Source: an uncultured Spirochaetia bacterium (GTDB taxonomy: Bacteria > Desulfobacterota_D > UBA1144 > Nemesobacterales > UBA2774). From it: 64,000 bases of DNA. The DNA lies in contig CAZPHQ010000009.1 in NCBI GenBank assembly GCA_964586675.1, forward strand, positions 16,216 to 80,215, given 5' to 3'. Below, one piece after another: positions 4,841 to 58,113 of the stretch (positions are counted from its first letter, which is position 1; every line of letters begins with the position of its first letter). Made by a program: the position numbers and the translations under genes. Below the pieces are notes generated by a model. The model made no database searches. It saw only the letters and a program-made list of their open reading frames with translations, and was not told the DNA's origin.

Positions 4841-5100
4841 GTCATTGCGAGCTGCAAAGCAGCGCGGCAATCCCGCTTTCACAGTTGTCATTTCGAGCGT
4901 ATGCGAGAAATCTTTATTTATTCTTTAATCCGTCATCCTGAACTACGATTTCGAGCAAGCGAGGAATCGAGAGCACTTGGCCAATTGCACCAACGTTTAT
5001 TTAGTACTGCTCCATGGCAATAGAAACCAAAACATTCAGGATCTCGTCTTTTGTCATTTCGAACTGCGATTTCGAGCGAGCGAGGAATCGAGAGCCCTTA
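4841..5100. repeat. mosaic intergenic repeat cluster B (four or more GTCAT-headed hairpin units)
   Basis: Units: gtcattgcgagctgcaaagcagcgcggcaatcc; gtcatttcgagcgtatgcgagaaatc; gtcatcctgaactacgatttcgagcaagcgaggaatcgagagcac; ...tttagtactgctcc...; gtcatttcgaactgcgatttcgagcgagcgaggaatcgagagccc. Copies of the same unit types recur at 6377.., 15915.. and 17047... Confidence 0.75.
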
Positions 5101-17884: not shown

Positions 17885-18237
<353 letters not shown>

Positions 18238-25512: not shown

Positions 25513-26442
25513 TTACGATAGACGTGTCTTTCTTCTGTGTATTATCAGCGCCCCGGCAATTCCTATAATTCCGGCCAAGGCGATAAGCCCCCATTCGGAA
25601 AGCGTCGGGATCGGATTAGGCAGGACAAGCCATATTTTTTCGACCGGTATCGATTCCAGCCCATCGACCGATGCCGTTATCCTGTCCGTACCAGGCGCAG
25701 AGCCTGTGTATGTCCACGACACCTGTCCGTTCGTATCGGTCCGACAGTCGATTGGGGAGCATTCACCGCTGCTGTTGCTCGCCTGACCGAGATTCGGTCC
25801 CGCAACCACCCTGAAAAATACAGGAGTACTGACTGAAGGGGATAGGTTGTCGAGCACCGTAGCCGTGACAGTGTGCTGTGTTCCGGTATCGTTCGTCGCC
25901 GTCGGAGGGGCTAATGAAATCGTGAAGTTCGAAGTGCAAAGGTAATTTTCAACCGTGAAGCTGTAATCGCAGGTAAATGTACCGAAACTAGTCATGGCGA
26001 CCAGAACCAGGCTGCTTCCCGCAGGCACTTCGAATGAAAAGCTTTGTGGAAGACTCGATCCGATATCGCCTATGTAATTTTCGCTCAGGTCTGCCGGATT
26101 ATACGAGTTGAGATAAGCCGCGGCGAATACGTTCGTGCCGCAGGTCCCCGTATTGAAATTGACGGTTACGCAGCTCGTGCTATTGGGGGCACGGAAAGCA
26201 TGTGTCGCGTAATTGAATGTCGTACCGGCGTCGAAAGTGCCCGGGAATGCCTTTGTCGGACAAGAGCTCGGTACGGCGTCTCTGAATAATCTGCCGTTCT
26301 GGAAGGGCCCGGTAGCTGAATTAAGAGAACCGTTTATAACCTGGCCGGCGTCGGGGCACACCTGACCTGCCGCATCGTTCGCGCTGAAAACCAGTACTGA
26401 ACTAAAGATAATCCCGAACAGGATTCCGTAGATTTTCATCAT
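25513..26442 (-). CDS. secreted Cys-rich protein with IPTL-CTERM sorting signal
   Basis: N-terminal signal peptide. C-terminus ...PNPIPTLSEWGLIALAGIIGIAGALIIHRRKTRLS, giving an IPTLSEWG motif + TM helix + basic cluster (IPTL-CTERM class). GGAGGA RBS. Confidence 0.8.
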   Translation of the reverse strand: MMKIYGILFGIIFSSVLVFSANDAAGQVCPDAGQVINGSLNSATGPFQNGRLFRDAVPSSCPTKAFPGTFDAGTTFNYATHAFRAPNSTSCVTVNFNTGTCGTNVFAAAYLNSYNPADLSENYIGDIGSSLPQSFSFEVPAGSSLVLVAMTSFGTFTCDYSFTVENYLCTSNFTISLAPPTATNDTGTQHTVTATVLDNLSPSVSTPVFFRVVAGPNLGQASNSSGECSPIDCRTDTNGQVSWTYTGSAPGTDRITASVDGLESIPVEKIWLVLPNPIPTLSEWGLIALAGIIGIAGALIIHRRKTRLS

Positions 26443-47563: not shown

Positions 47564-48640
47564 CTACGTGTGCTCCTCCCAGGAGAGCATGCCGCTCCTG
47601 TATTCGGTGACCCTCGTCTCGAAGAAGTTTTTTTCCTTCCTGAGGTCTATAATCTCGCTCATCCACGGAAACGGGTTCTGTGAATGGTAGACCTTTTCGA
47701 GCCTTATACGCTCGAGCCGCCTGTCGGCGATGTAGCGGACGTACTCACTGACGAGGCCGGAATTAAGCCCGAGTATCCCCGCCGGGAGACAGTCGCGCGT
47801 GTAAGTCATTTCGAGCTCGACCGCTTTTTTGATATTGTCAGTGAGGAGCGCCTTGAACTCATTCGTCCATATACCCGGGTTCTCGTCGACGATGTTGTTT
47901 ATGAGCTCGGTGCCGAAGGCGAGGTGTATGGACTCGTCCCGGAGTATGAACTGGAACTGCTCCCCGAGCCCGGCCATCTTGTTCTGCCGGAGGAGGGACA
48001 GTATCATCGCGAAGCCGGCGTAAAAGAATATGCCCTCCATGATGACGTAGAACCCGACTAGGTCGTGAACGAAGCTCCGTATGTTGTCCTCGGTGTTCGT
48101 CGTAAAGCCGGGATCGAGGACGTTCTTCGTGAGCCTGACGACGAAATCGTCCTTCTCCTTTATCGTGGGGTTGTTTATATACATGTTGTAGACCTCGTCT
48201 GGGTCGAGGCCGAGCGTGTCGCAGCAGTAGATGAACGTGTCCGTGTGAATGGCCTCCTCGAATGCCTGGCGGAGTAGATACTGCCTGCACTCGGGGTTCG
48301 TGATATGGCGGTAGATCGAGAGCACGATGTTGTTGGCCGTGAGGCTCTCGGCCGTCGAGAAGAAGCCGAGGTTGTAGATTATCATCCGGCGCTCCTCTTC
48401 TGAAAGTGCGGCCTGGTCTTTCCACATCTCGATGTCCTTCTGCATGTTGACCTCGTCGGGCACCCAGTTGTTCGCGACGCCGACTTTATAATACTCCCGG
48501 GCCCACTTGTACTTGATCGGGAGTATCTTGTTCGGGTCCGTGACAGAGCAGTTGATTATGCGCTTGTGGTCGCCGCCCGCCTTTCCACCGCTTCCGCCGA
48601 CCTTGCCGTGGCTGCCGTTGCCGTTTTCGTTTATTGACAT
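47564..48640 (-). CDS. nrdB: ribonucleotide reductase class Ia beta subunit
   Basis: Ferritin-like di-iron fold residues present. Start at MSINENG, which has a GAGGAGG RBS. Overlaps the nrdA stop by 10 nt. Confidence 0.9.
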   Translation of the reverse strand: MSINENGNGSHGKVGGSGGKAGGDHKRIINCSVTDPNKILPIKYKWAREYYKVGVANNWVPDEVNMQKDIEMWKDQAALSEEERRMIIYNLGFFSTAESLTANNIVLSIYRHITNPECRQYLLRQAFEEAIHTDTFIYCCDTLGLDPDEVYNMYINNPTIKEKDDFVVRLTKNVLDPGFTTNTEDNIRSFVHDLVGFYVIMEGIFFYAGFAMILSLLRQNKMAGLGEQFQFILRDESIHLAFGTELINNIVDENPGIWTNEFKALLTDNIKKAVELEMTYTRDCLPAGILGLNSGLVSEYVRYIADRRLERIRLEKVYHSQNPFPWMSEIIDLRKEKNFFETRVTEYRSGMLSWEEHT

Positions 48641-51372
48641 GATTCGCATCCCTCCTCGAGGCCGCACGCGTTTAAGGTTTCGTCCGCCTGCCGGACGGTG
48701 CCGGTCGTTATCTGGTCCCTCGCCTCGACGGTGCTCTTCTCGACGCCGGACGCCCCGAGAGAGCGGAGGTAGTAGGTCGTCTTGAGGCCCGATTTCCAGG
48801 CGTAGATATACGTCTCGGAGATGCGCTCGCCGGATAAGGTATCGACGAATATGTTCACCGACTGGCTCTGGTCGATCCACTTTGACCTGTAGGCGGCGTG
48901 GAGTATCACCCACGAGGGGTCGATCTCGAATGCTCCCAGGTATTTTTCGACGAGCTTGTTCGGGAGGTCCTTCATGCCGACGATACTCCCGTCCGTCTGC
49001 TTCAGCTTTTCGAGCATGGACTTGTCCCAGAGGCCGGCTTTCCTGAGGTCGTCTATCAGGAACTGGTTCACTATCGTGAACTCGCCGCTCAGATTCGATT
49101 TGACGTAGAGGTTCTTGTATATAGGCTCTATCGAAGGGTAGCAACCCGCGATGTTGGCTATCGTCGCCGTAGGGGCGATAGCCAGGCAGTTAGAATTCCT
49201 GAGCCCATGCTTTTTGACCTTCTCACGTAGCGAGCCCCAGTCGAGCCGAGAGTTCATGCTGACTGACGTCGGCACGCCCCGCTCCTCTTCGAGCATCTTC
49301 ATCGTGTCGAGCGGAAAGAGGCCCCTGTCCCATTTCGATCCTTCGAACGATGAGTATTTTCCTCGTTCGAGCGCAAGGTCGGAAGAGGCCGAAATGGCAT
49401 GCAGGGAAACGGTCTCCATGACGAGGTCTGAAAATTCCACGGCCTCGTCGCTCGCGAAATTGAGGCCGGCCTGGTAGAGGGCGTCCTGAAACCCCATGAC
49501 GCCGAGCCCTATGGGGCGGTGAGCGAGGTTAGAGCGGCGGGTCTCTTTCGTCGGGTAGAAGTTGAGGTCGATGGAGTTATCGAGCATGCGGACCGCCGTT
49601 TTTATAGTCTCCGCGAGCGCCGCCTCGTCGAGCGCACCGTCTTTTATATGCAGGGAGAGATTGACCGAGCCGAGGTTACAGACGGCGAACTCGTCACGCG
49701 AGGTGTTGAGCGTTATCTCCGTGCAGAGGTTCGAGCTGTTGACGACGCCCTCGTGGTCCTGCGGCGAGCGGATGTTACACGGGTCTTTGAACGTGAGCCA
49801 CGGGTGGCCCGTTTCGTAGAGCATCGTTATGATCTTCCGCCAGAGCTTCTGCGCGGGGACACGCTTTGAGAGGCGTATCTCGCCCCTGTCGGCCGCGCGC
49901 TCGTATTCTTCATAACGGCGCGCGAACACCTTTCCGTAGAGGCTGTGAAGGTCGGGCGTTTCGTTCGGGGAGAAGAAAGTCCAGTCGCCCCTTTCGATGA
50001 CGCGCTTCACGAAAAGATCGGGCACCCACGCCGCGATGTTGAGGTCGTGCGTACGCCGCCTCTCGTCTCCCGTGTTCTTTCTTAGCTCGATGAAGTCCTC
50101 GAAGTCGTAGTGCCACGCTTCGAGGTAGGCGCACGTCGCGCCCCGCCGCTTCCCGCTCCGGTTTATGGCGGAGGTCGTCGAGTCCAGTATCTTGAGGAAC
50201 GGGATCACACCCTGGCTGTTGACGTTAGTGCTTCGTATCATCGCGCCCGTGCCGCGTATCGTCGTCCAGTCTATGCCTATGCCGCCCGACCACTTCGCGA
50301 GCTGTGCGACGTCGCCCATCGTCTTGAAGATGTTGTCGAGCTCGTCGGAGCAGGTGAGAAGATAGCACGAGCTCATCTGGGAATTGACCGTGCCCGAGTG
50401 GAACAGGGTAGGGGTCGAGGGGACGTATCTCATCGCCGAGATGGCGTCGTAGAACTCTATCGCCTTACGTTCTTTGTCCTCTTCGTTGAGTGCGAGGCCC
50501 ATGGCGACGCGCATCCAGAAATACTGCGGGACCTCCAGGATGTTCTGGTCGTAATCCTTCATGAGATAGCGGTCGTAGAGGGTCTGGAGGCCGAGGTATT
50601 TAAGCAGGCCGTCGCGCGAGGCGTCGAGCGCGCGGGATATGGCGTCGAGGTCGTAACCCGCAAGCCCCTCGGAATACCGGCCTTCCGCGACTCCCCTGGC
50701 GATGCTCTTCCTGAACGTCTCGCGGTATGCGGCCTCGAAGCCGTCCTCGTATTCATAGCGGCCGATGACGTCTTTGTAGAGGTCGTTGAGCAGTACGCGC
50801 GCGGCGAGGTAGGAATACGTCAAATCCGTCTCTATGCGGGAGCGGCACACCATCACGACCGCCTGGTTTATGTCCCTCGTCGTAATGCCGTCGTACATCA
50901 GCGATTTGGCCTCGTCTATGATCTCGTCGACCATCGCCGGCTCTTCGGCCCCGCTGCAGCACGACCTAATGAACCTCTCTATCTCGTATGCGTTAAACGG
51001 CTTCACCGCGCCGCTCCTCTTGCGGACGCTGATGAGCCCCTTGTTGACCTTGTCGATAAGCTCGCGCTTCTTGTCGAGACGCTTCTTTTTGTGGTCCTCG
51101 CGGTAGAGGATGTATGCGGTCGCTACTCGGACGTATCCGCGATCCGCGATCTTCTGCTCGACGAGGTCCTGTATGTTTTCGACGCCGGGAACTCTCTCGG
51201 CGAAGAGCGCCTCGAGATCTTCGAGCACGTCGTCGGTGATGGACCTCATCAGCTTTTCGTCCGACTTGCCTAGGGTCGCGGCGAAAGCCTTCGATATGGC
51301 GGCCTCGATGCGCACCCTGTCGAACTCGACTATGCGCCCGTCCCGCTTCTTGATTAGATTGATATTGCCCAT
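48631..51372 (-). CDS. nrdA: ribonucleotide reductase class Ia alpha subunit
   Basis: 913 aa. N-terminal ATP-cone(s), catalytic barrel, C-terminal CxxC tail (...EEGCESCQ). Confidence 0.95.
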   Translation of the reverse strand: MGNINLIKKRDGRIVEFDRVRIEAAISKAFAATLGKSDEKLMRSITDDVLEDLEALFAERVPGVENIQDLVEQKIADRGYVRVATAYILYREDHKKKRLDKKRELIDKVNKGLISVRKRSGAVKPFNAYEIERFIRSCCSGAEEPAMVDEIIDEAKSLMYDGITTRDINQAVVMVCRSRIETDLTYSYLAARVLLNDLYKDVIGRYEYEDGFEAAYRETFRKSIARGVAEGRYSEGLAGYDLDAISRALDASRDGLLKYLGLQTLYDRYLMKDYDQNILEVPQYFWMRVAMGLALNEEDKERKAIEFYDAISAMRYVPSTPTLFHSGTVNSQMSSCYLLTCSDELDNIFKTMGDVAQLAKWSGGIGIDWTTIRGTGAMIRSTNVNSQGVIPFLKILDSTTSAINRSGKRRGATCAYLEAWHYDFEDFIELRKNTGDERRRTHDLNIAAWVPDLFVKRVIERGDWTFFSPNETPDLHSLYGKVFARRYEEYERAADRGEIRLSKRVPAQKLWRKIITMLYETGHPWLTFKDPCNIRSPQDHEGVVNSSNLCTEITLNTSRDEFAVCNLGSVNLSLHIKDGALDEAALAETIKTAVRMLDNSIDLNFYPTKETRRSNLAHRPIGLGVMGFQDALYQAGLNFASDEAVEFSDLVMETVSLHAISASSDLALERGKYSSFEGSKWDRGLFPLDTMKMLEEERGVPTSVSMNSRLDWGSLREKVKKHGLRNSNCLAIAPTATIANIAGCYPSIEPIYKNLYVKSNLSGEFTIVNQFLIDDLRKAGLWDKSMLEKLKQTDGSIVGMKDLPNKLVEKYLGAFEIDPSWVILHAAYRSKWIDQSQSVNIFVDTLSGERISETYIYAWKSGLKTTYYLRSLGASGVEKSTVEARDQITTGTVRQADETLNACGLEEGCESCQ

Positions 51373-51841: not shown

Positions 51842-52354
51842 TTAAACGCCGGCGGTCTTCCGCCTCCTCAAGACGTAAAACGCTCCGGCAAGCCCGAGCC
51901 CGGCCGCCGCGGCGAGCATGCCCCATTCCGAAAGTGTGGGAATCGGCCTGATAGAGATGCTTTCGGGCGCGTTGATGAAGGTGCAGGTGCCGCTGCCGCC
52001 CGGAGCCGGGCACTCGACGAATATGCCGCCCCGAATTGGCGTGATCTCGAGCCCGCTGACTCCACAATCAACGTCGGCCAGCACCCAGTCTGGCAAAGCG
52101 ACCTCGACTACTCGCAAGTCGTTCGTGGGATCGAGAGGCAGAAAAGCGCATTCCGATCCGGCAACCAGATCGAATTCAAAAATGTCGCCGGGCCTTTGGC
52201 CAGTGAATGTGAAAACAGTGTCTCCAGCGCCCGGGGCCGATTTGCATATCGATATACTGCAGCTCTGGGCCCGGGCTTCATCTCCCGGTGAAGGAATGAA
52301 CAGGAAAGCAGATACGGCAAGTACGAACAAAAGGGTAGGTGTCAGGGATCTCAT
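51842..52354 (-). CDS. small secreted Cys-rich protein with IPTL-CTERM sorting signal
   Basis: C-terminus ...IRPIPTLSEWGMLAAAAGLGLAGAFYVLRRRKTAGV. Start at MRSLTP with GGAGGA RBS. Confidence 0.8.
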   Translation of the reverse strand: MRSLTPTLLFVLAVSAFLFIPSPGDEARAQSCSISICKSAPGAGDTVFTFTGQRPGDIFEFDLVAGSECAFLPLDPTNDLRVVEVALPDWVLADVDCGVSGLEITPIRGGIFVECPAPGGSGTCTFINAPESISIRPIPTLSEWGMLAAAAGLGLAGAFYVLRRRKTAGV

Positions 52355-52565
52355 AACATCCTCCAGATTCATGTATTAATGAGATTATGAGATATTTACG
52401 GCAGGATTTCAATGGACTCAAGCGGGTCTGTCATTCAGGGCGCATCGATCCTCCGCATCCGCCGCTCCCGGAGAATAGCCGGGCATGATTAATACGCCTC
52501 CTTGTTACGGTATAATGGCATAGGCGGGGGCGCATAAAGGCCGGCGAAGACGCGGAGGAAATCAC

Positions 52566-53945
52566 ATGACGAAAAGATACGACGCGGTAATAATCGGGAC
52601 AGGACAGGCAGGGCCGCCGCTCGCGGAAAGACTCTCCGCGGCAGGGATGAAGGTCGCGATACTCGAACGGGAGCTCTTCGGCGGGACATGCGTCAACACG
52701 GGCTGCACGCCGACGAAAACGCTCATCGCATCGGCACGCGCGGCGCACGTCGCAAGGACGGCCGGAAAATACGGGGCAATAGTAAGCGGCGACGTGAGCG
52801 TCGACATGAAGAAGGTCAAAGCCAGAAAGGACGAGGTCGCCGGCGCTTCCGAGAAGGGCATCGAGGACTGGCTCGCCGGCATGAAGAACGTGACTGTCTA
52901 TAAGGGACACGGGCGGTTCGAATCGCCGCGCACTGTGAGCGTGAACGGTGAGCTCCTCGAAGCCGACAAGATATTCGTGAACACGGGCGGAAGGGCGTTC
53001 GTCCCCCCGGGCGGGGAGGAAGACGGGACGCCGTGCTTCACCAACTCCTCGATAATGCATGTCGATTTTTTGCCGAAGCATCTTATCGTTATAGGCGGGA
53101 GCTACGTCGGCCTCGAATTCGCGCAGATGTACAGGCGGTTCGGGAGCGAGGTGACTGTTATCGAGAAGGGAGCGCGGCTCGCGGGACGGGAGGACGAGGA
53201 CGTTTCCGAGGCCCTCAGGATAATAATGGAGAAGGAGGGGGTTAACGTCGTCACGGGCGCTAACTGCATCTACGCCCGGAAGCACCCCGAGGGCGCGGAG
53301 GTGGTGACGGAATGCGAGACGGGGGAGGAGACTGTCGCGGGCTCGCATGTCCTCTGGGCTGTCGGGCGCGTTCCCAACACCGACGACCTCGGGCTCGAAA
53401 AGGCGGGAGTCGCCACCGACAAAAGGGGGTTCATTATCGTTGACGACCATCTCCGGACGAACGTTCCGGGGATATGGGCGCTGGGGGATTGCAACGGCAA
53501 GGGCGCGTTCACACATACGAGCTATAACGACTTCGAGATCGTCGCCGCCAACCTGCTCGACGGCGACGACAGGAAGGTGAGCGACAGGATAACCGCCTAC
53601 GCCCTCTATACCGACCCGCCCCTCGGCCGTGCGGGCATGACGGAGAAAGAAGTCAGGGAATCCGGGAGAAAGGCGCTCGTGGGGAAGAGGGCGATGGAGC
53701 GCGTCAGCCGCGCGAGGGAGCGCGGGGAGACGGACGGGTTCATAAAGGTTCTCGCCGACGCCGGCACAGGGGAGATACTCGGCGCGGCAATCATCGGCAT
53801 AGAGGGCGACGAGACCGTACACTCGATACTCGACGTCATGTATGCGAAAAAACCCTACAGCGTTATACAAAGGGCCGTTCACATTCACCCGACGGTATCG
53901 GAGCTCATACCGACGTTATTCGGCGAAATGAAGCCCCTCGACTGA
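52566..53945 (+). CDS. class I pyridine-nucleotide-disulfide oxidoreductase (dihydrolipoyl dehydrogenase / glutathione-reductase family)
   Basis: GGTCVNTGCTPTK redox-active disulfide. Two Rossmann motifs. C-terminal HxHPTxSE dimer-interface motif. Confidence 0.85.
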   Translation: MTKRYDAVIIGTGQAGPPLAERLSAAGMKVAILERELFGGTCVNTGCTPTKTLIASARAAHVARTAGKYGAIVSGDVSVDMKKVKARKDEVAGASEKGIEDWLAGMKNVTVYKGHGRFESPRTVSVNGELLEADKIFVNTGGRAFVPPGGEEDGTPCFTNSSIMHVDFLPKHLIVIGGSYVGLEFAQMYRRFGSEVTVIEKGARLAGREDEDVSEALRIIMEKEGVNVVTGANCIYARKHPEGAEVVTECETGEETVAGSHVLWAVGRVPNTDDLGLEKAGVATDKRGFIIVDDHLRTNVPGIWALGDCNGKGAFTHTSYNDFEIVAANLLDGDDRKVSDRITAYALYTDPPLGRAGMTEKEVRESGRKALVGKRAMERVSRARERGETDGFIKVLADAGTGEILGAAIIGIEGDETVHSILDVMYAKKPYSVIQRAVHIHPTVSELIPTLFGEMKPLD

Positions 53946-54009: not shown

Positions 54010-54609
54010 ATGATAGAAGAGCTCCAGAAAAGGATTGAAGAGCAGAGGATGCTGATGGCGGGCATTTGCTGCCCCGCGCGGAATATCAACACGGCGACGC
54101 TGGAGAGCGTCCTCAGCCTCGGCATCGAGATAGCGCGCGAGGGAAGGGAGGGGCGAAAGATCGGGACGATGTTCATAATCTCGGATACCGAGGAGACGCT
54201 CAAGCACTCGCGCCCCCTGATACTCGATCCGCTCTACGGACATCCCGATTCGATGAAGAGGGCGGAAGACCCGAACATGCGCGAGACAGTCAAGGAGCTG
54301 GCCCAGATGGACGGGGCTTTTATCGTATCCGACGACGGCATCTTCGTTTCGGCCTGCAGGTACATTTTCCCGACGTCCGAGAACATCGACCTCCCCCTCG
54401 GTTTCGGGAGCAGGCATTTAGCGGGAGCTTCCATAACCAAAAGAACGAACTCCGTGGCCGTAGTCGTTTCGGAGAGTTCCATGGTGAGGGTCTTTGACAA
54501 CGGCAAAGTTGTAGGCGAAATTATCCCCGAGCTGTGGTTCCTCCGGGAATACTCGTCGGGCGGCAATTTCACGCTGGCGAGCGCGTCGGGCGGCACCGTG
54601 GTGTCTTAA
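54010..54609 (+). CDS. stand-alone DAC (DisA_N) domain protein, putative diadenylate cyclase
   Basis: ...DGAFIVSDDG.I.SA.RYI....LGFGSRHLAGASI...T.SVAVVVSESS.V.VF.NGK... matches the DGA / RHR DAC-domain core. No TM or other domain. Confidence 0.7.
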   Translation: MIEELQKRIEEQRMLMAGICCPARNINTATLESVLSLGIEIAREGREGRKIGTMFIISDTEETLKHSRPLILDPLYGHPDSMKRAEDPNMRETVKELAQMDGAFIVSDDGIFVSACRYIFPTSENIDLPLGFGSRHLAGASITKRTNSVAVVVSESSMVRVFDNGKVVGEIIPELWFLREYSSGGNFTLASASGGTVVS

Positions 54610-54621
54610 AGGCGAGGCTGG

Positions 54622-55278
54622 ATGATAATAGTTTTTATAGTAGACATTCACGGCAACTCCGCGCCGATAGACCTGCTCAGGGACCAGCTGTCCTCGGCCG
54701 ACCTCGTACTCATCGGGGGCGACATAACGCACTTCGGCGGAGAGGACAAGGCGCGCGAGGTCATGGACAAGGTCAGGTGGTATAACCAGAACGTCCTCGC
54801 CGTCACGGGGAACTGCGATACGAAGGAAGTAGACGACTATCTTTACCGCGAGAACATAAACCTCCACGCGAGGGGCTTCAGGCGGAACGGCCTGTGCATA
54901 GTAGGCGCGGGAGGCTCCCTCCCGGCCCCGAGCCCGACGCCGAACGTTTATTCCGAAGAAGAATACGAGGCCATCTTCGAAAGAAGTCTCGAGGACTGCG
55001 ACATGACGGTGCCGATGGTGCTCGTATCGCACCAGCCGCCCATAGGCACGCTTAACGATACCCTCTCCAGCGGGGCCCACGTCGGGAGCGCGGCCGTGAG
55101 AACCTTCATCGAGCAGTACCATCCGCTAGTCTGCTTCACGGGGCACATCCACGAGGCCCCGGGCATAGACAAGATAGCCGGGAGCAAGATCGTAAATCCC
55201 GGCCCCTTCGGGACTCGCTCCTACGCATATCTCGACGTTACAGATACCGTCCGTACGCTCGAAATAAGGAAGTTCTGA
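54622..55278 (+). CDS. calcineurin-like metallophosphoesterase
   Basis: D-x-H-G-N, GD-x-x-H, GNCD and GH-x-H motifs of the MPE superfamily. Begins 12 nt after the DAC gene. Confidence 0.8.
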   Translation: MIIVFIVDIHGNSAPIDLLRDQLSSADLVLIGGDITHFGGEDKAREVMDKVRWYNQNVLAVTGNCDTKEVDDYLYRENINLHARGFRRNGLCIVGAGGSLPAPSPTPNVYSEEEYEAIFERSLEDCDMTVPMVLVSHQPPIGTLNDTLSSGAHVGSAAVRTFIEQYHPLVCFTGHIHEAPGIDKIAGSKIVNPGPFGTRSYAYLDVTDTVRTLEIRKF

Positions 55279-55424: not shown

Positions 55425-56132
55425 ATGAAAGGTTATAAAACCCAGTATTTAACAAACTGTTTTATGTATATTCCATGCCTTCTGCTCGTTGCCGCGGCCG
55501 TTTTAGCGCCTCTTCCGGCCGGCGCGCAGGAGCCGAAGCTTCATCCCCTCGCAAACTACATGGTGAAATACAAGTCCGAAGGCAACGCAACCGGAGAGAA
55601 AATCCAGTTCTCGCAGGACTATGGAAGGAAAATCTGCCTTAAGGAAAGCCTCCAGATCACGATGCCCGAGATCGGCAGCGTCAAGCGCAACGAAAAGATG
55701 GTTTCCTGGATCGAAAACGGAGAGCGCTGGATAGTGGTCGTTAACCTCGACGACAATACCGGCACGAAGTTTAAAGACCCGACGTTCGCCAAGGTAAGCG
55801 AATCGATAAAAGGGAAAGACCCCAAGGATTTCAACCAGCAGCAGCTCATGAGCATGGGGGGATTAGTCAAGGGTCAGAAGACTGTGAGCGGAGAGCAGTG
55901 CAGCATGTGGAGCTTCCCGCAAGGGATCGAAATGTGCATCACCGAAGACTTCATAATGCTGGAGACGGTGGCCAACGTGCAGGATCTCACGGTTAACGAA
56001 ACCGCCGTCGAGGTGAAGAGGAATTCGCCCGAGCCCGCCGGACTCTGCGACCTGACCGGCGTCAATATAACGGAGAGAGACATCAACCAGATGATGCAGC
56101 AGCAGGCGCCGCCGCAACAGCCCGCGCAGTAA
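55425..56132 (+). CDS. secreted hypothetical protein
   Basis: Signal peptide ...LLLVAAAVLAPLPAGAQEP. GGGGAGG RBS. No family recognised. Confidence 0.55.
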   Translation: MKGYKTQYLTNCFMYIPCLLLVAAAVLAPLPAGAQEPKLHPLANYMVKYKSEGNATGEKIQFSQDYGRKICLKESLQITMPEIGSVKRNEKMVSWIENGERWIVVVNLDDNTGTKFKDPTFAKVSESIKGKDPKDFNQQQLMSMGGLVKGQKTVSGEQCSMWSFPQGIEMCITEDFIMLETVANVQDLTVNETAVEVKRNSPEPAGLCDLTGVNITERDINQMMQQQAPPQQPAQ

Positions 56133-57047: not shown

Positions 57048-57872
57048 TCAGACCCGGAGTCTTCTTCTCGAGAGGTACACAGCCGACACGATTCCCAGGG
57101 CTCCCGCGGCGCAAATCATCCCCCATTCCGAAAGGGTAGGTATGGGAGTCGTAAGATCGACGACTTCGCCCACCAGCTGAAAGGCGAGGCCCCCGTCGTC
57201 CGCGCCGCAGCCCTGGAGCGGCGTGAAGGCGACGCATCCCGTTCCGAACCCGTTGCCCGGGTTCTCCCATACGGCGGCGCCAAGGTCCTGAACGGTCCGC
57301 TCGAACCAGAACCACTGTCCGTTGGGCACGAAGAGCATATCGGCCTGGACGGAGACCCAGTATCTTCCGGCGGTAAGCATGCAGGGCGCCGGCAGCTCGG
57401 TGCTGAAGCTGGGGTCGAGTATGTTATCGGGGAGTACATTTCTGTAATTGCAATACCAGATTATCCCGTCCGGCCTGGCACCGCGGTTCGTATAGAACAC
57501 TATATTGAGCGACTGTATCGGGTCGGGCGTGTCGTCGTATATTCCGAGCACATTCACGCGCTCTATGCGCCATATGTCTCCTTCCGGAATTTTGAAATCG
57601 TCTGCCGCACGCGTATCGTAGATATTGAACGAGCTGTCGCTGTCTATGAAATCCTGAGAGGAGATATCGGAATCGGCGACGTCATTGAACTGGTTCCAGA
57701 GCACGTTCGGCGGCGTGGGCGGGATAAGCGGGGCGGGGTCCTGATCGCGCATTATAGGCGCGCCGTTCGCCGACGAGAGCCGGGGCAGACAGAAAATAAC
57801 GGACAGGAATGAAAGCAGCAGGGCAATACGGAGATATTTTCCGGCACCTGACAGGCCTTCCGGGTTGCGCAT
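57048..57872 (-). CDS. secreted protein with IPTL-CTERM sorting signal
   Basis: C-terminus ...TTPIPTLSEWGMICAAGALGIVSAVYLSRRRLRV. Start at MRNPEG with GGAGGA RBS. Confidence 0.8.
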   Translation of the reverse strand: MRNPEGLSGAGKYLRIALLLSFLSVIFCLPRLSSANGAPIMRDQDPAPLIPPTPPNVLWNQFNDVADSDISSQDFIDSDSSFNIYDTRAADDFKIPEGDIWRIERVNVLGIYDDTPDPIQSLNIVFYTNRGARPDGIIWYCNYRNVLPDNILDPSFSTELPAPCMLTAGRYWVSVQADMLFVPNGQWFWFERTVQDLGAAVWENPGNGFGTGCVAFTPLQGCGADDGGLAFQLVGEVVDLTTPIPTLSEWGMICAAGALGIVSAVYLSRRRLRV

Positions 57873-58113
57873 TGGAATATCCTCCACAGGGGCGGCCTGA
57901 ATGAAGCCGGCCGCTGATTAATCCTCTTCACCTCATTCTAGCAGGCGACAGTGAGCGCTTCAATAGCCCAGGAAAATCGCCCGAGCATGCGAACTGAAGT
58001 CTGAATTCGTTCGCTTTAAAGTCCGGGAACAGGCGCAGTTCACGAACCCTGAGCCGCACGAAGTATTGACCACTGTGACTTCTGCTATATCCTGAGAATA
58101 TGGAGGTACGCAG

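Follow-up and report, generated by a model that had tools for sequence, protein, structure and literature searches.

c-di-AMP is essential yet toxic, so that every producer needs a means of removing it; we know of no c-di-AMP hydrolase in many phyla outside Firmicutes and Actinobacteria. The locus described here lies in a 64,000-nt stretch of DNA (the window) and places the gene of a short diadenylate cyclase (DAC) directly ahead of that of a calcineurin-like metallophosphoesterase (MPE). This raises the question of whether the two genes form a dedicated module for synthesis and turnover of c-di-AMP, one of the possibilities put forward by an earlier, sequence-only reading. The answer favoured here, with moderate confidence, is that a genuine c-di-AMP synthase is co-transcribed with a backbone phosphodiesterase that is mainly c-di-AMP-independent. 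The gene order and coordinates given in the sequence-only reading hold, with both ORFs on the forward strand and 12 nt apart (Table 1). Both genes are considered real because word-indexed searches returned 7,182 homologues of the DAC and 694 of the MPE.

Table 1. Features of the DAC-MPE locus, in positions of the window
Feature	Position	Strand	Basis
Class-I pyridine-nucleotide disulfide oxidoreductase, 459 aa	52566..53945	+	Pfam Pyr_redox_2 + Pyr_redox_dim
Gene of the short, soluble diadenylate cyclase, 199 aa	54010..54609	+	Pfam PF02457, NCBIfam, AF2, Foldseek
DGA motif D101-G102-A103 of cyclase	54310..54318	+	Sequence reading; alignment A1
R135-H136-L137 of cyclase, the family's version of RHR	54412..54420	+	Sequence reading
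12-nt spacer AGGCGAGGCTGG between DAC and MPE, with GAGG Shine-Dalgarno-like element	54610..54621	+	Sequence reading
Calcineurin-like binuclear MPE gene, 218 aa, TT1561/aq_1956 type (Metallophos_3)	54622..55278	+	Pfam, AF2, Foldseek
MPE motif I, D8-I-H10	54643..54651	+	Invariant in alignment A2
MPE motif III, G63-N64-C65-D66	54808..54819	+	Invariant in alignment A2
MPE motif V, G174-H175-I176-H177	55141..55152	+	Invariant in alignment A2
Conserved 235-aa protein, hydrophobic N-terminus, no Pfam family	55425..56132	+	Pfam; locus comparison

The first protein had been described as a stand-alone DAC domain, and a Pfam search bears this out. It matches PF02457 (DisA_N) with 67.8 bits (E=8e-19, cut-off 27), residues 42 to 166 aligning to profile positions 3 to 118 of 119. 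Its AF2 model (pLDDT 80) retrieves the structures of CdaA, CdaM, and DisA in Foldseek at a probability of 1.00, with E-values down to 1.5e-8. The protein consists of an N-terminal helix (residues 2–17), a DAC core (about residues 28–183), which begins in the model with helix 28–46, and a disordered tail (residues 184–199). An N-terminal region ahead of the core had been noticed correctly, but its length was overestimated at roughly 60 aa; the Pfam start, the alignment of relatives, and the modelled core place it at about 25–40 aa, and multi-domain relatives align from about residue 20–30 onwards. The protein is called soluble, as it was before, because the maximum Kyte-Doolittle average over 19 residues is only 1.12, which indicates no transmembrane segment. 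The D-G, R-H, and S-E residues of the DAC family are invariant across phyla, at a mean column identity of 65%. In alignment A1, D101 and G102 never vary and A103 hardly does, while the S-E segment reads V151-V-V-S154-E155. The cyclase is a member of a large, highly conserved short-DAC family of about 200 aa that is already annotated. A redox switch involving the conserved residues C20 and C116 was considered and dropped, since C116 aligns with a cysteine of Bacillus subtilis CdaA.

The best NCBIfam match of the cyclase is DacZ (NF041371) with 127.6 bits, far below the equivalog cut-off of 430 and confined to the C-terminal half of the profile (positions 124–268 of 270). DacZ/CdaZ provides the nearest catalytic domain, and the form G-S-R-H-(hydrophobic)-A of the RHR motif is common to both. 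Relatives sharing 40–50% identity have the DacZ architecture with the DAC domain at the C-terminus, and one of them, P0290, contains both DacZ_P and DacZ_T. Neither these domains nor a PK_C-like sensor domain was matched by Pfam in the 199-aa protein, where a helix of about 25 aa stands at the site that the roughly 125-aa N-terminal PK_C-like/DacZ_P domain occupies in DacZ/CdaZ. Furthermore, DacZ/CdaZ is of archaeal type, whereas the cyclase of the window is bacterial (Dadabacteria). Judged by sequence, the catalytic domain of the 199-aa family is closest to the DacZ branch, without the sensor domain of DacZ.

The other cyclase classes are more distant, and their cut-offs lie well above the scores obtained: 26.7 bits for CdaA (TIGR00159, cut-off 188.8), 22.9 bits for DisA (NF010009, cut-off 201), 21.3 bits for CdaS (NF038328), and 33.4 bits for CdaM (NF038327), the last two with cut-offs of 225. 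CdaA (DacA; 4rv7, 6huw, 8ogk) shares the DAC fold, and its DGA, R-H, and S-E segments align. The cyclase differs from it in having no N-terminal TM helices, in an identity of about 20%, in RH-L for RH-R and S-E-S for S-E-E, and in the absence of a cdaR/glmM neighbourhood. DisA carries a linker and a C-terminal helix-hairpin-helix DNA-binding domain, whereas the cyclase ends 16 disordered residues past the core. The classification of DAC architectures followed here is the one relayed second-hand by two papers (PMC12901056, PMC10249747).

In place of the canonical RHR, the 199-aa protein contains RH-L (R135-H136-L137-A-G, 54412–54426), which the sequence-only reading regarded as a possible defect of activity. 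An improbable alternative holds that the protein is inactive as a cyclase and now serves as a nucleotide-binding regulator, or makes another product, owing to the lost third arginine of RHR and the serine in place of the second glutamate of S-E-E. S154-E155-S156 does align to the S-E-E of CdaA, and an RHR-to-AAA triple mutation abolished the activity of M. tuberculosis DisA (PMC3328451). That mutant changes all three residues together, however, and is therefore uninformative on the third residue alone. Within the close family, R135 and H136 are invariant and the third position is occupied by methionine (100 sequences), leucine (7), isoleucine (7), or valine (5), being hydrophobic in 119 of 120 and arginine in none. 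Most relatives of the DacZ branch, a bona fide protein with a DacZ_P domain among them, likewise carry a hydrophobic or small residue at this position. The substitutions are conservative and family-wide, the family being under strong purifying selection across phyla, and the same deviations occur in relatives with the architecture of DacZ/CdaZ, enzymes that are reported to be active (PMC6741144, PMC10249747). RH-L therefore appears to be a trait of the family and the branch rather than a lesion, which weakens the case for the suspected defect. The first gene is proposed to encode a genuine diadenylate cyclase without a sensor, which represents the DacZ-like branch in short form and which, by homology with solved DACs, would join two ATP into c-di-AMP as its DAC domains dimerise face to face.

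The second protein is, as recognised earlier, a calcineurin-fold MPE. Its matches to PF00149 (51.7 bits) and PF12850 (50.3 bits) both exceed the cut-offs, and so does a partial match to PF14582 (Metallophos_3; 39.1 bits, cut-off 28.2) over residues 132–208. All five metal-ligand motifs of the superfamily (DxH, GD, GNH/C-D/E, H, GHxH) are present as D8/H10, G33-D34, G63-N-C-D66, H137, and G174-H-I-H177, and all are invariant in alignment A2; in motif III a cysteine replaces the usual histidine. Only Metallophos families were matched in Pfam, which revealed no DHH-DHHA1, 7TMR-HD, or PF01663 domain and no 5_nucleotid_C domain in this single-domain protein, and no signal peptide was found. With the AF2 model (pLDDT 93), Foldseek places 2yvt and 1uf3 on top (TM 0.79), followed by GpdQ, MPPED2, and Rv0805.

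These two top structures, aq_1956 (2yvt) and TT1561 (1uf3), are the best match of the MPE in both sequence and fold. Both are of similar size and, like it, binuclear MPEs of a single domain, at an identity of only 18–20%. Since neither has an assigned substrate, the match transfers no function, and a literature search on TT1561, aq_1956, and COG2129 returned nothing informative about function. The label 'YfcE-like' applied earlier holds only loosely. YfcE, an Mn2+-dependent phosphodiesterase of E. coli, is likewise a small single-domain MPE, and its motif III has the same unusual form G-N-C-D. The match to TIGR00040 (YfcE), however, covers only residues 1–77 and remains at 40.2 bits below the cut-off of 56.25, and YfcE is absent from the top 50 structural matches. 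The protein therefore appears to be a TT1561/aq_1956-type enzyme and no member of the YfcE family. Rv0805, MPPED2, and GpdQ, which are class III cyclic-nucleotide and glycerophospho-diesterases, are also binuclear phosphodiesterases of cyclic or diester phosphates (TM 0.64–0.71 to the MPE), but show 15–18% identity and have other cap and dimerisation elements.

The spacer between the two genes contains no terminator-like site, and its length is 11–20 nt in 11 of 12 paired loci. From this same-strand spacing and the missing terminator, co-transcription of the two genes is inferred, in line with the operon partnership suggested earlier. The oxidoreductase gene ends 64 nt upstream of the DAC gene, and the transcription unit may begin with it; a sigma-70-like site at 52489–52516 is the only one near the pair. 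This upstream gene is kept only in the window and at four further loci (L001, L002, L009, L010). The 235-aa protein downstream of the MPE is found in all 11 clade loci as part of a conserved block. As a side observation, thiol-redox genes recur as neighbours. In the rest of the window, about 40 further annotated ORFs include no canonical cyclase, phosphodiesterase, or receptor of c-di-AMP, the annotated ORFs contain no DHH-DHHA1, PgpH-type HD, or PF01663 domain, and an Rfam scan for a c-di-AMP (ydaO) riboswitch gave a tmRNA as its sole match. A literature search on c-di-AMP in Dadabacteria returned no papers.

The pair is conserved in related genomes. It is present at 10 of the 10 closest species loci, at 17 of 18 informative close metagenome loci, and at locus L093. 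The two points on which the sequence-only reading had staked its proposal, a match of the first protein to DAC models and synteny of the pair in relatives, have thus both come out in its favour. The adjacency survives divergence of the MPE down to about 59–63% identity, and it survives a change of the upstream gene, which is the oxidoreductase in the window and a methyltransferase in L093. The DAC and MPE trees are congruent, with the same three subclades, and the pairwise identities of the two proteins correlate with r=0.97 over 66 pairs. None of the 12 DAC-bearing loci of the lineage lacks the MPE.

Outside the lineage the association ends. An MPE within 4 kb of the DAC gene was found at 0 of 70 DAC loci, and a DAC neighbour at 0 of 44 informative distant MPE loci outside the clade; four further distinct MPE contexts are likewise without a DAC. 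A single DAC-linked locus falls under 55% identity (L120), with an MPE truncated by the contig, and looks like a clade member. Among the DAC representatives at 50% identity, no fusion with an MPE was seen. The 392-aa protein P0241 was rejected as a candidate because what it carries in addition is a DsbA-like thioredoxin domain, and others of the relatives checked carry DsbA or zf-UBP domains. Neither sign of functional pairing, an association beyond one lineage or a fusion, was thus found. The pairing appears to be ancestral and co-inherited by vertical descent within one Candidatus Dadabacteria-related lineage, to which it is confined.

Within this lineage the MPE also occurs without the cyclase. 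At six loci (L090, L091, L092, L094, L095, and L116) the MPE is kept and the DAC is absent, and the catalytic residues are all invariant in these orthologues. L090, L091, and L094 have the backbone of the window and the MPE. In L092 and L095, the sole difference from L093 is that the DAC ORF is cleanly missing between the stop of the methyltransferase gene and the start of the MPE gene, and the MPEs are 83–85% identical. Among the 120 proteins closest to the DAC of L093, none comes from the contigs without a DAC at this site, three of them 1.8–2.7 Mb long; this indirect search covers close DACs and would miss divergent ones or those of other classes. The DAC-less loci are scattered over the MPE tree, which implies at least three events of DAC loss. 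The MPE gene itself belongs to a long backbone in the order M50 peptidase, citrate synthase, M42 peptidase, MPE, YceI, GNAT, His-phosphatase, RraA, and a radical-SAM gene. The cyclase gene seems to have been excised several times inside the lineage while the MPE stayed, apparently under selection whether the cyclase was there or not.

These observations bear directly on the proposed module, in which the MPE would act in the cytoplasm as cognate phosphodiesterase of c-di-AMP or 5'-pApA, co-expressed with the cyclase to avert toxic build-up. This is considered rather unlikely, although much of the evidence is consistent with it. The operon is tight and ancestral, the trees are congruent, and the adjacency has outlasted both the divergence of the MPE and the exchange of upstream genes. 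The binuclear site of the MPE is complete, its structural neighbours are phosphodiesterases, among them Rv0805 and MPPED2, which act on cyclic nucleotides, and hydrolysis of c-di-AMP lies within the reach of MPE-fold domains, as CpdB/CdnP enzymes show (PMC4905662, PMC7922932). The window offers no canonical c-di-AMP phosphodiesterase among its annotated ORFs. In addition, the one-sided dependency, with no DAC lacking an MPE in the lineage, would be expected of an 'essential poison' cyclase that cannot do without its hydrolase. Against this stand the fully equipped MPEs that outlived several independent deletions of the cyclase, the 70 other species whose DAC of the same family has no MPE neighbour, the MPE orthologues of other phyla without a DAC neighbour, and the lack of fusions among the representatives. 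The whole region is, moreover, collinear throughout the lineage, so that conserved adjacency counts for less than usual. The module proposed from sequence is thereby weakened.

Its chemistry would also be less novel than supposed. Enzymes of the CpdB/CdnP class, which the sequence-only reading itself had named, hydrolyse c-di-AMP with a calcineurin-like MPE catalytic domain (PMC4905662, PMC7922932, PMC13229355), so that a calcineurin-fold c-di-AMP hydrolase is not unprecedented. They belong to the same superfamily as the protein of the window, but are large, two-domain, and secreted, periplasmic, or cell-wall-anchored, whereas the window MPE is without their substrate-binding 5'-nucleotidase C domain. 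The novelty would lie in c-di-AMP hydrolysis by an MPE that is small, cytoplasmic, and single-domain. It is doubtful that the MPE represents such a new intracellular class of c-di-AMP phosphodiesterase, and with it the first function for Metallophos_3/COG2129; as a new c-di-AMP-degrading enzyme it is at best a weak candidate.

A cyclase without any sensor domain would need some external control, and the MPE could in principle supply it as a protein-level regulator or partner, as GlmM and CdaR do for CdaA, without hydrolysing a nucleotide. Predicted tight co-expression and co-inheritance of the two genes would fit such a role. The invariant catalytic residues of the MPE argue for an enzymatic role instead, and its persistence without the DAC also speaks against regulation, which makes this explanation very unlikely. 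It is extremely unlikely that the two genes form an anti-phage signalling system in which the cyclase would be the sensor and the MPE would serve as effector or clear the signal. Among PADLOC models, the candidate family PDC-S10 is matched by the MPE with 65 bits and a 'diadenylate cyclase' model, weakly, by the cyclase with 29 bits, but these are superfamily-level matches to unvalidated candidates. The locus furthermore lies in a vertically inherited backbone of core genes rather than in a defence island, and the trees are congruent with vertical descent.

The reading preferred here thus combines a sensor-less cyclase with a downstream TT1561/aq_1956-type binuclear metallophosphodiesterase, the two being probably co-transcribed and their adjacency probably ancestral and vertically inherited in the one Candidatus Dadabacteria-related lineage. 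As the MPE belongs to the backbone and would be maintained regardless of the cyclase, it most likely serves primarily in a phosphodiester hydrolysis independent of c-di-AMP, and its share in the turnover of c-di-AMP or pApA would be facultative at most. The result is negative but specific: an ordinary member of the short DACs, an RH-L motif normal for its branch, and a lineage-restricted operon with a cyclase-independent MPE. Should the MPE prove to be the hydrolase after all, it would define a new class of phosphodiesterase and give a function to the structural-genomics orphan family TT1561/aq_1956. The 'essential poison' logic of c-di-AMP would then account for the one-sided dependency, in which the MPE sometimes occurs without the cyclase but never the reverse. 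For the link between the two genes, L093 compared with L092 and L095 forms a natural presence/absence series and thus a ready comparative system.

The diadenylate-cyclase (DAC) and calcineurin-like metallophosphoesterase (MPE) genes were found on the window sequence as the sequence-only reading had placed them. The DAC stop and the MPE start lie 11–20 nt apart in 11 of the 12 paired loci; in L009, the distance is 144 nt. No terminator-like site was found between the two genes, and the sole sigma-70-like site near the pair lies upstream of the oxidoreductase gene. Judging from the sequence, DAC and MPE are likely co-transcribed.

Coordinates of features in the window and in loci from other genomes
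Feature	Location	Coordinates	Strand	Remarks
DAC ORF	window	54010-54609	+	199 aa
MPE ORF	window	54622-55278	+	218 aa; also the PDC-S10 match
DAC-MPE spacer	window			12 nt, AGGCGAGGCTGG, GAGG ribosome-binding-like element inside
Sigma-70-like site	window	52489-52516
Class-I disulfide oxidoreductase	window	52566-53945
235-aa protein	window	55425-56132	+
tmRNA	window	17885-18237	+	RF00023
IPTL-CTERM-type protein	window	25513-26442	-
IPTL-CTERM-type protein	window	51842-52372	-
IPTL-CTERM-type protein	window	57048-57887	-
Ribonucleotide reductase, small subunit	window	47564-49144	-	526 aa as listed
Ribonucleotide reductase, large subunit	window	48631-51372
TGTAATAATA element	L091	~4985-4994		equivalent sites in L092, L095
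TrkH	L092	5708-7165	-
TrkH	L093	5704-7224	-
TrkH	L095	5701-7158	-
Rubrobacter/Actinomycetota-type DAC locus	L055	2610-3983
Rubrobacter/Actinomycetota-type DAC locus	L027	1959-2537

The DAC matches the Pfam family PF02457 (DAC/DisA_N) over residues 42–166 with 67.8 bits (cut-off 27), and the motifs first read by eye were verified as D101-G-A103, R135-H-L137-A-G, and V-V-V-S154-E155. Its solubility is likewise upheld, as no hydrophobic segment is present (19-residue Kyte-Doolittle average at most 1.12). The N-terminal region, previously put at about 60 residues, comprises about 25–40, since the Pfam match starts at residue 42 and multi-domain relatives align from about residue 20–30. In the AF2 model (pLDDT 80), a low-confidence helix (2–17) is followed by a confident core beginning with helix 28–46, and the catalytic domains of CdaA, CdaM, and DisA superpose with a Foldseek probability of 1.00. 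The top NCBIfam model is archaeal-type DacZ, with 127.6 bits (cut-off 430) and a match restricted to its catalytic C-terminal half. Scores for the CdaA, DisA, CdaS, and CdaM models are far under every cut-off, and membership of DacZ proper or of any of these four groups was rejected.

A word-indexed search yielded 7,182 relatives of the DAC. The best 120 are nearly all 185–225 aa long, originate from Thermodesulfobacteriota, Syntrophobacterales, and Anaerolineales, among others, and already carry the NCBI and JGI annotation 'diadenylate cyclase'. The family is very conserved, with a mean column identity of 65% across phyla. The next relatives, found at 40–50% identity in an exhaustive search of 50%-identity representatives, are mostly 265–715 aa long with a C-terminal DAC domain; one of them, P0290, carries genuine sensor domains of the DacZ_P and DacZ_T types. 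Because DacZ is the best NCBIfam match and these relatives are DacZ-like with a C-terminal DAC, the window protein is a short form of the DacZ-like branch, differing from DacZ in the lack of sensor domains. It belongs to the DAC superfamily and to a large, already recognised short-DAC family.

The RH-L motif had been suspected of impairing activity, a suspicion at odds with the relatives. The residue following R-H is M in 100, L in 7, I in 7, and V in 5 of the 120 close relatives, and R in none. Among 150 more distant representatives it is chiefly L, V, A, M, or I, and sequences of DacZ architecture read G-S-R-H-L-A, G-G-R-H-I-A, or G-S-R-H-A-S at this site. Furthermore, the family has S-E-S where CdaA has S-E-E. 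Both RH-L and S-E-S are branch traits under purifying selection, and not a lesion of the window copy. The evidence for an essential RHR stems from a triple RHR-to-AAA mutant of Mycobacterium tuberculosis DisA (PMC3328451), which leaves the third residue's own role unisolated, and activity has been reported for DacZ/CdaZ enzymes (PMC6741144, PMC10249747). The window DAC is thus predicted to be active; there is little chance that it is an inactive cyclase.

The identity of the second protein as a calcineurin-like metallophosphoesterase is borne out by Pfam matches to Metallophos, Metallophos_2, and Metallophos_3, each over cut-off. All five metal-ligand motifs are present (D8-x-H10, G33-D34, G63-N-C-D66, H137, and G174-H-x-H177) and do not vary across 20 aligned sequences of 48–90% identity. 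The earlier label 'YfcE-like' is only loosely apt, as the YfcE subfamily model scores under its cut-off, covering residues 1–77 only, and YfcE lies outside the top 50 structural matches; the common G-N-C-D motif is the main resemblance. The sole solved relative by sequence is aq_1956 (2yvt, E=1e-8). The structures nearest to the AF2 model (pLDDT 93) are aq_1956 and TT1561 (TM 0.79), followed by the phosphodiesterases GpdQ, MPPED2, and Rv0805. Both aq_1956 and TT1561 are structural-genomics proteins without known substrate, and no literature on the function of this group was found; MPE belongs to a structural family that is known but an orphan. The PADLOC phage-defence candidate PDC-S10 also matches MPE nearly full-length (65 bits, E=1e-18). 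Given the core-genome context of the gene, this is probably a superfamily-level resemblance, and with PADLOC matches at that level only, the pair has a slim prospect of being a defence system.

A DAC-alignment scan with one genome per species gave 80 loci. MPE lies directly downstream of DAC in the 10 closest, which belong to Candidatus Dadabacteria and related MAGs with a DAC identity of at least 68%. Within 4 kb of DAC, it is absent from the other 70, including Syntrophobacterales, Rubrobacter, Elusimicrobia, and Planctomycetes, so that the two-gene cassette proposed earlier is conserved in this lineage and not beyond. The MPE-less loci have other lineage-specific neighbours, such as AcrB in Syntrophobacteraceae and Hsp20 elsewhere. 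Distant MPE orthologues (47–53% identity) of Chloroflexi, Anaerolineales, and Planctomycetota adjoin uvrB, kpsF/kdsC-like genes, or bactofilin, and were never found beside a DAC. Scanning metagenomes with the MPE alignment added 80 loci. At an MPE identity of at least 55% and with enough upstream sequence, DAC is present in 17 loci and missing from one; below 55%, 44 loci are without DAC and one has it. This single locus, L120, is probably a clade member, because the contig ends within its MPE and its DAC is 69% identical. No description of the pairing was found in the literature. The metagenome contig L096 (PJQE01000770.1, 5.9 kb) encodes DAC and MPE 100% identical to those of the window at the protein level; a public metagenome assembly has therefore captured the same population. 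A different conserved neighbourhood is seen in Rubrobacter/Actinomycetota (L021–L065), with a cNMP-binding histidine kinase upstream of DAC and, downstream, an MFS transporter and DUF924, the latter about 56 nt away and present in 22 loci.

In the 12 paired loci, the DAC and MPE trees divide into the same three subclades, and the pairwise identities of the two proteins correlate with r=0.97 (66 pairs); the pair is therefore ancestral and vertically co-inherited. MPE, however, has its place in a conserved backbone that is far longer than the pair. In the window, GAF-PtsP, M50 peptidase, citrate synthase, TPR, M42 peptidase, choice-of-anchor-I protein, ribonucleotide reductase, and oxidoreductase precede the pair, and DAC and MPE are followed by a small exported protein, YceI(-), GNAT, His-phosphatase, RraA, and radical-SAM/DUF4070. 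Loci L090, L091, and L094 (contigs of 2.67, 2.46, and 1.78 Mb) have this backbone and MPE, with DAC missing. The sharpest case of MPE without DAC is the comparison of L093 (methyltransferase, DAC, MPE, TrkH(-)) with L092 and L095 (methyltransferase, MPE, TrkH(-)). In L093 the methyltransferase TAA abuts the DAC ATG, whereas in L092 and L095 the entire DAC ORF is gone, a 66–78 nt spacer takes its place, and the MPEs are 83–85% identical to that of L093. The DAC-less loci are scattered on the MPE tree (L090 basal, L094 beside L003–L008, L091 alone, L092 and L095 sister to L093), which, together with the congruent trees, implies at least three independent losses of DAC. Every catalytic residue is retained in their MPEs. 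The DAC-less contigs harbour none of the L093 DAC's 120 closest relatives, which suggests that these genomes are without this DAC family altogether.

The DAC-less loci have a conserved TGTAATAATA element in common, which resembles an extended -10 box and ends up only 10–15 nt ahead of the MPE start codon (ATG). In the absence of DAC, MPE thus seems to have gained or retained a promoter of its own, one with a very short leader. In one subclade, a convergent TrkH potassium-transporter gene lies about 45–50 nt past MPE, with or without DAC. As potassium uptake is the classic c-di-AMP-controlled process, this proximity may be more than coincidence.

The synthesis/turnover module of the sequence-only reading, with MPE as the dedicated c-di-AMP turnover partner of DAC, retains the tight spacing in one lineage, an adjacency that outlasts upstream-gene changes, and phosphodiesterases as structural neighbours. 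Hydrolysis of c-di-AMP is known for the MPE-fold CpdB/CdnP enzymes (PMC4905662, PMC7922932, PMC13229355), although these are large, exported, two-domain proteins and the window MPE has 218 aa. However, MPE is kept unchanged through repeated DAC loss, the association is missing from all other lineages with either family, no DAC-MPE fusions were found, and collinearity in this lineage extends over the entire region; we consider such a module unlikely. A regulatory complex of the two proteins has a small probability. We lean towards a cyclase that is genuine and shares its transcript with a backbone phosphodiesterase independent of c-di-AMP. Within the lineage, DAC never occurs without MPE, an asymmetry which fits an essential-poison cyclase with its obligatory hydrolase and, equally, an accessory gene located ahead of a gene of the core backbone. 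The cyclase is another member of a known, already annotated kind and the pairing a lineage-restricted operon; the locus would gain interest only if MPE proved to be the lineage's c-di-AMP hydrolase.

Thiol-redox proteins recur beside or within the short-DAC family in several phyla. A DsbA-like gene adjoins DAC in 6 of the 80 species loci (L028, L036, L050, L051, L068, and L071), a thioredoxin-reductase-like gene lies at most 4 kb away in 7 of the 80, and a class-I disulfide oxidoreductase is located upstream in the window and four further loci. Apparent DsbA-DAC fusion proteins and one zf-UBP-DAC fusion also occur (clusters P0241, P0242, P0247, and P0244). The family is associated more widely with thiol-redox proteins than with MPE, and these neighbours and fusions may point to redox control of the family.

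The 235-aa protein, with a hydrophobic N-terminus and a Gln/Pro-rich C-terminus, matches no Pfam family and is kept directly downstream of MPE in 11 of 11 clade loci. An IPTL-CTERM-type sorting signal (IPTLSEWGM, a hydrophobic stretch, then basic residues) is found at the C-terminus of three predicted exported proteins, two of which flank the DAC-MPE block; the Pfam model matches two of the three, and in the remaining one the motif was recognised by eye. The tmRNA gene (173 bits) is the only Rfam match at gathering score in the window. In the ribonucleotide-reductase small-subunit ORF, the catalytic domain covers residues 204–490 only, and the 5' portion of the ORF shares sequence with the large-subunit gene. 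The TTG given as its start probably lies too far upstream.
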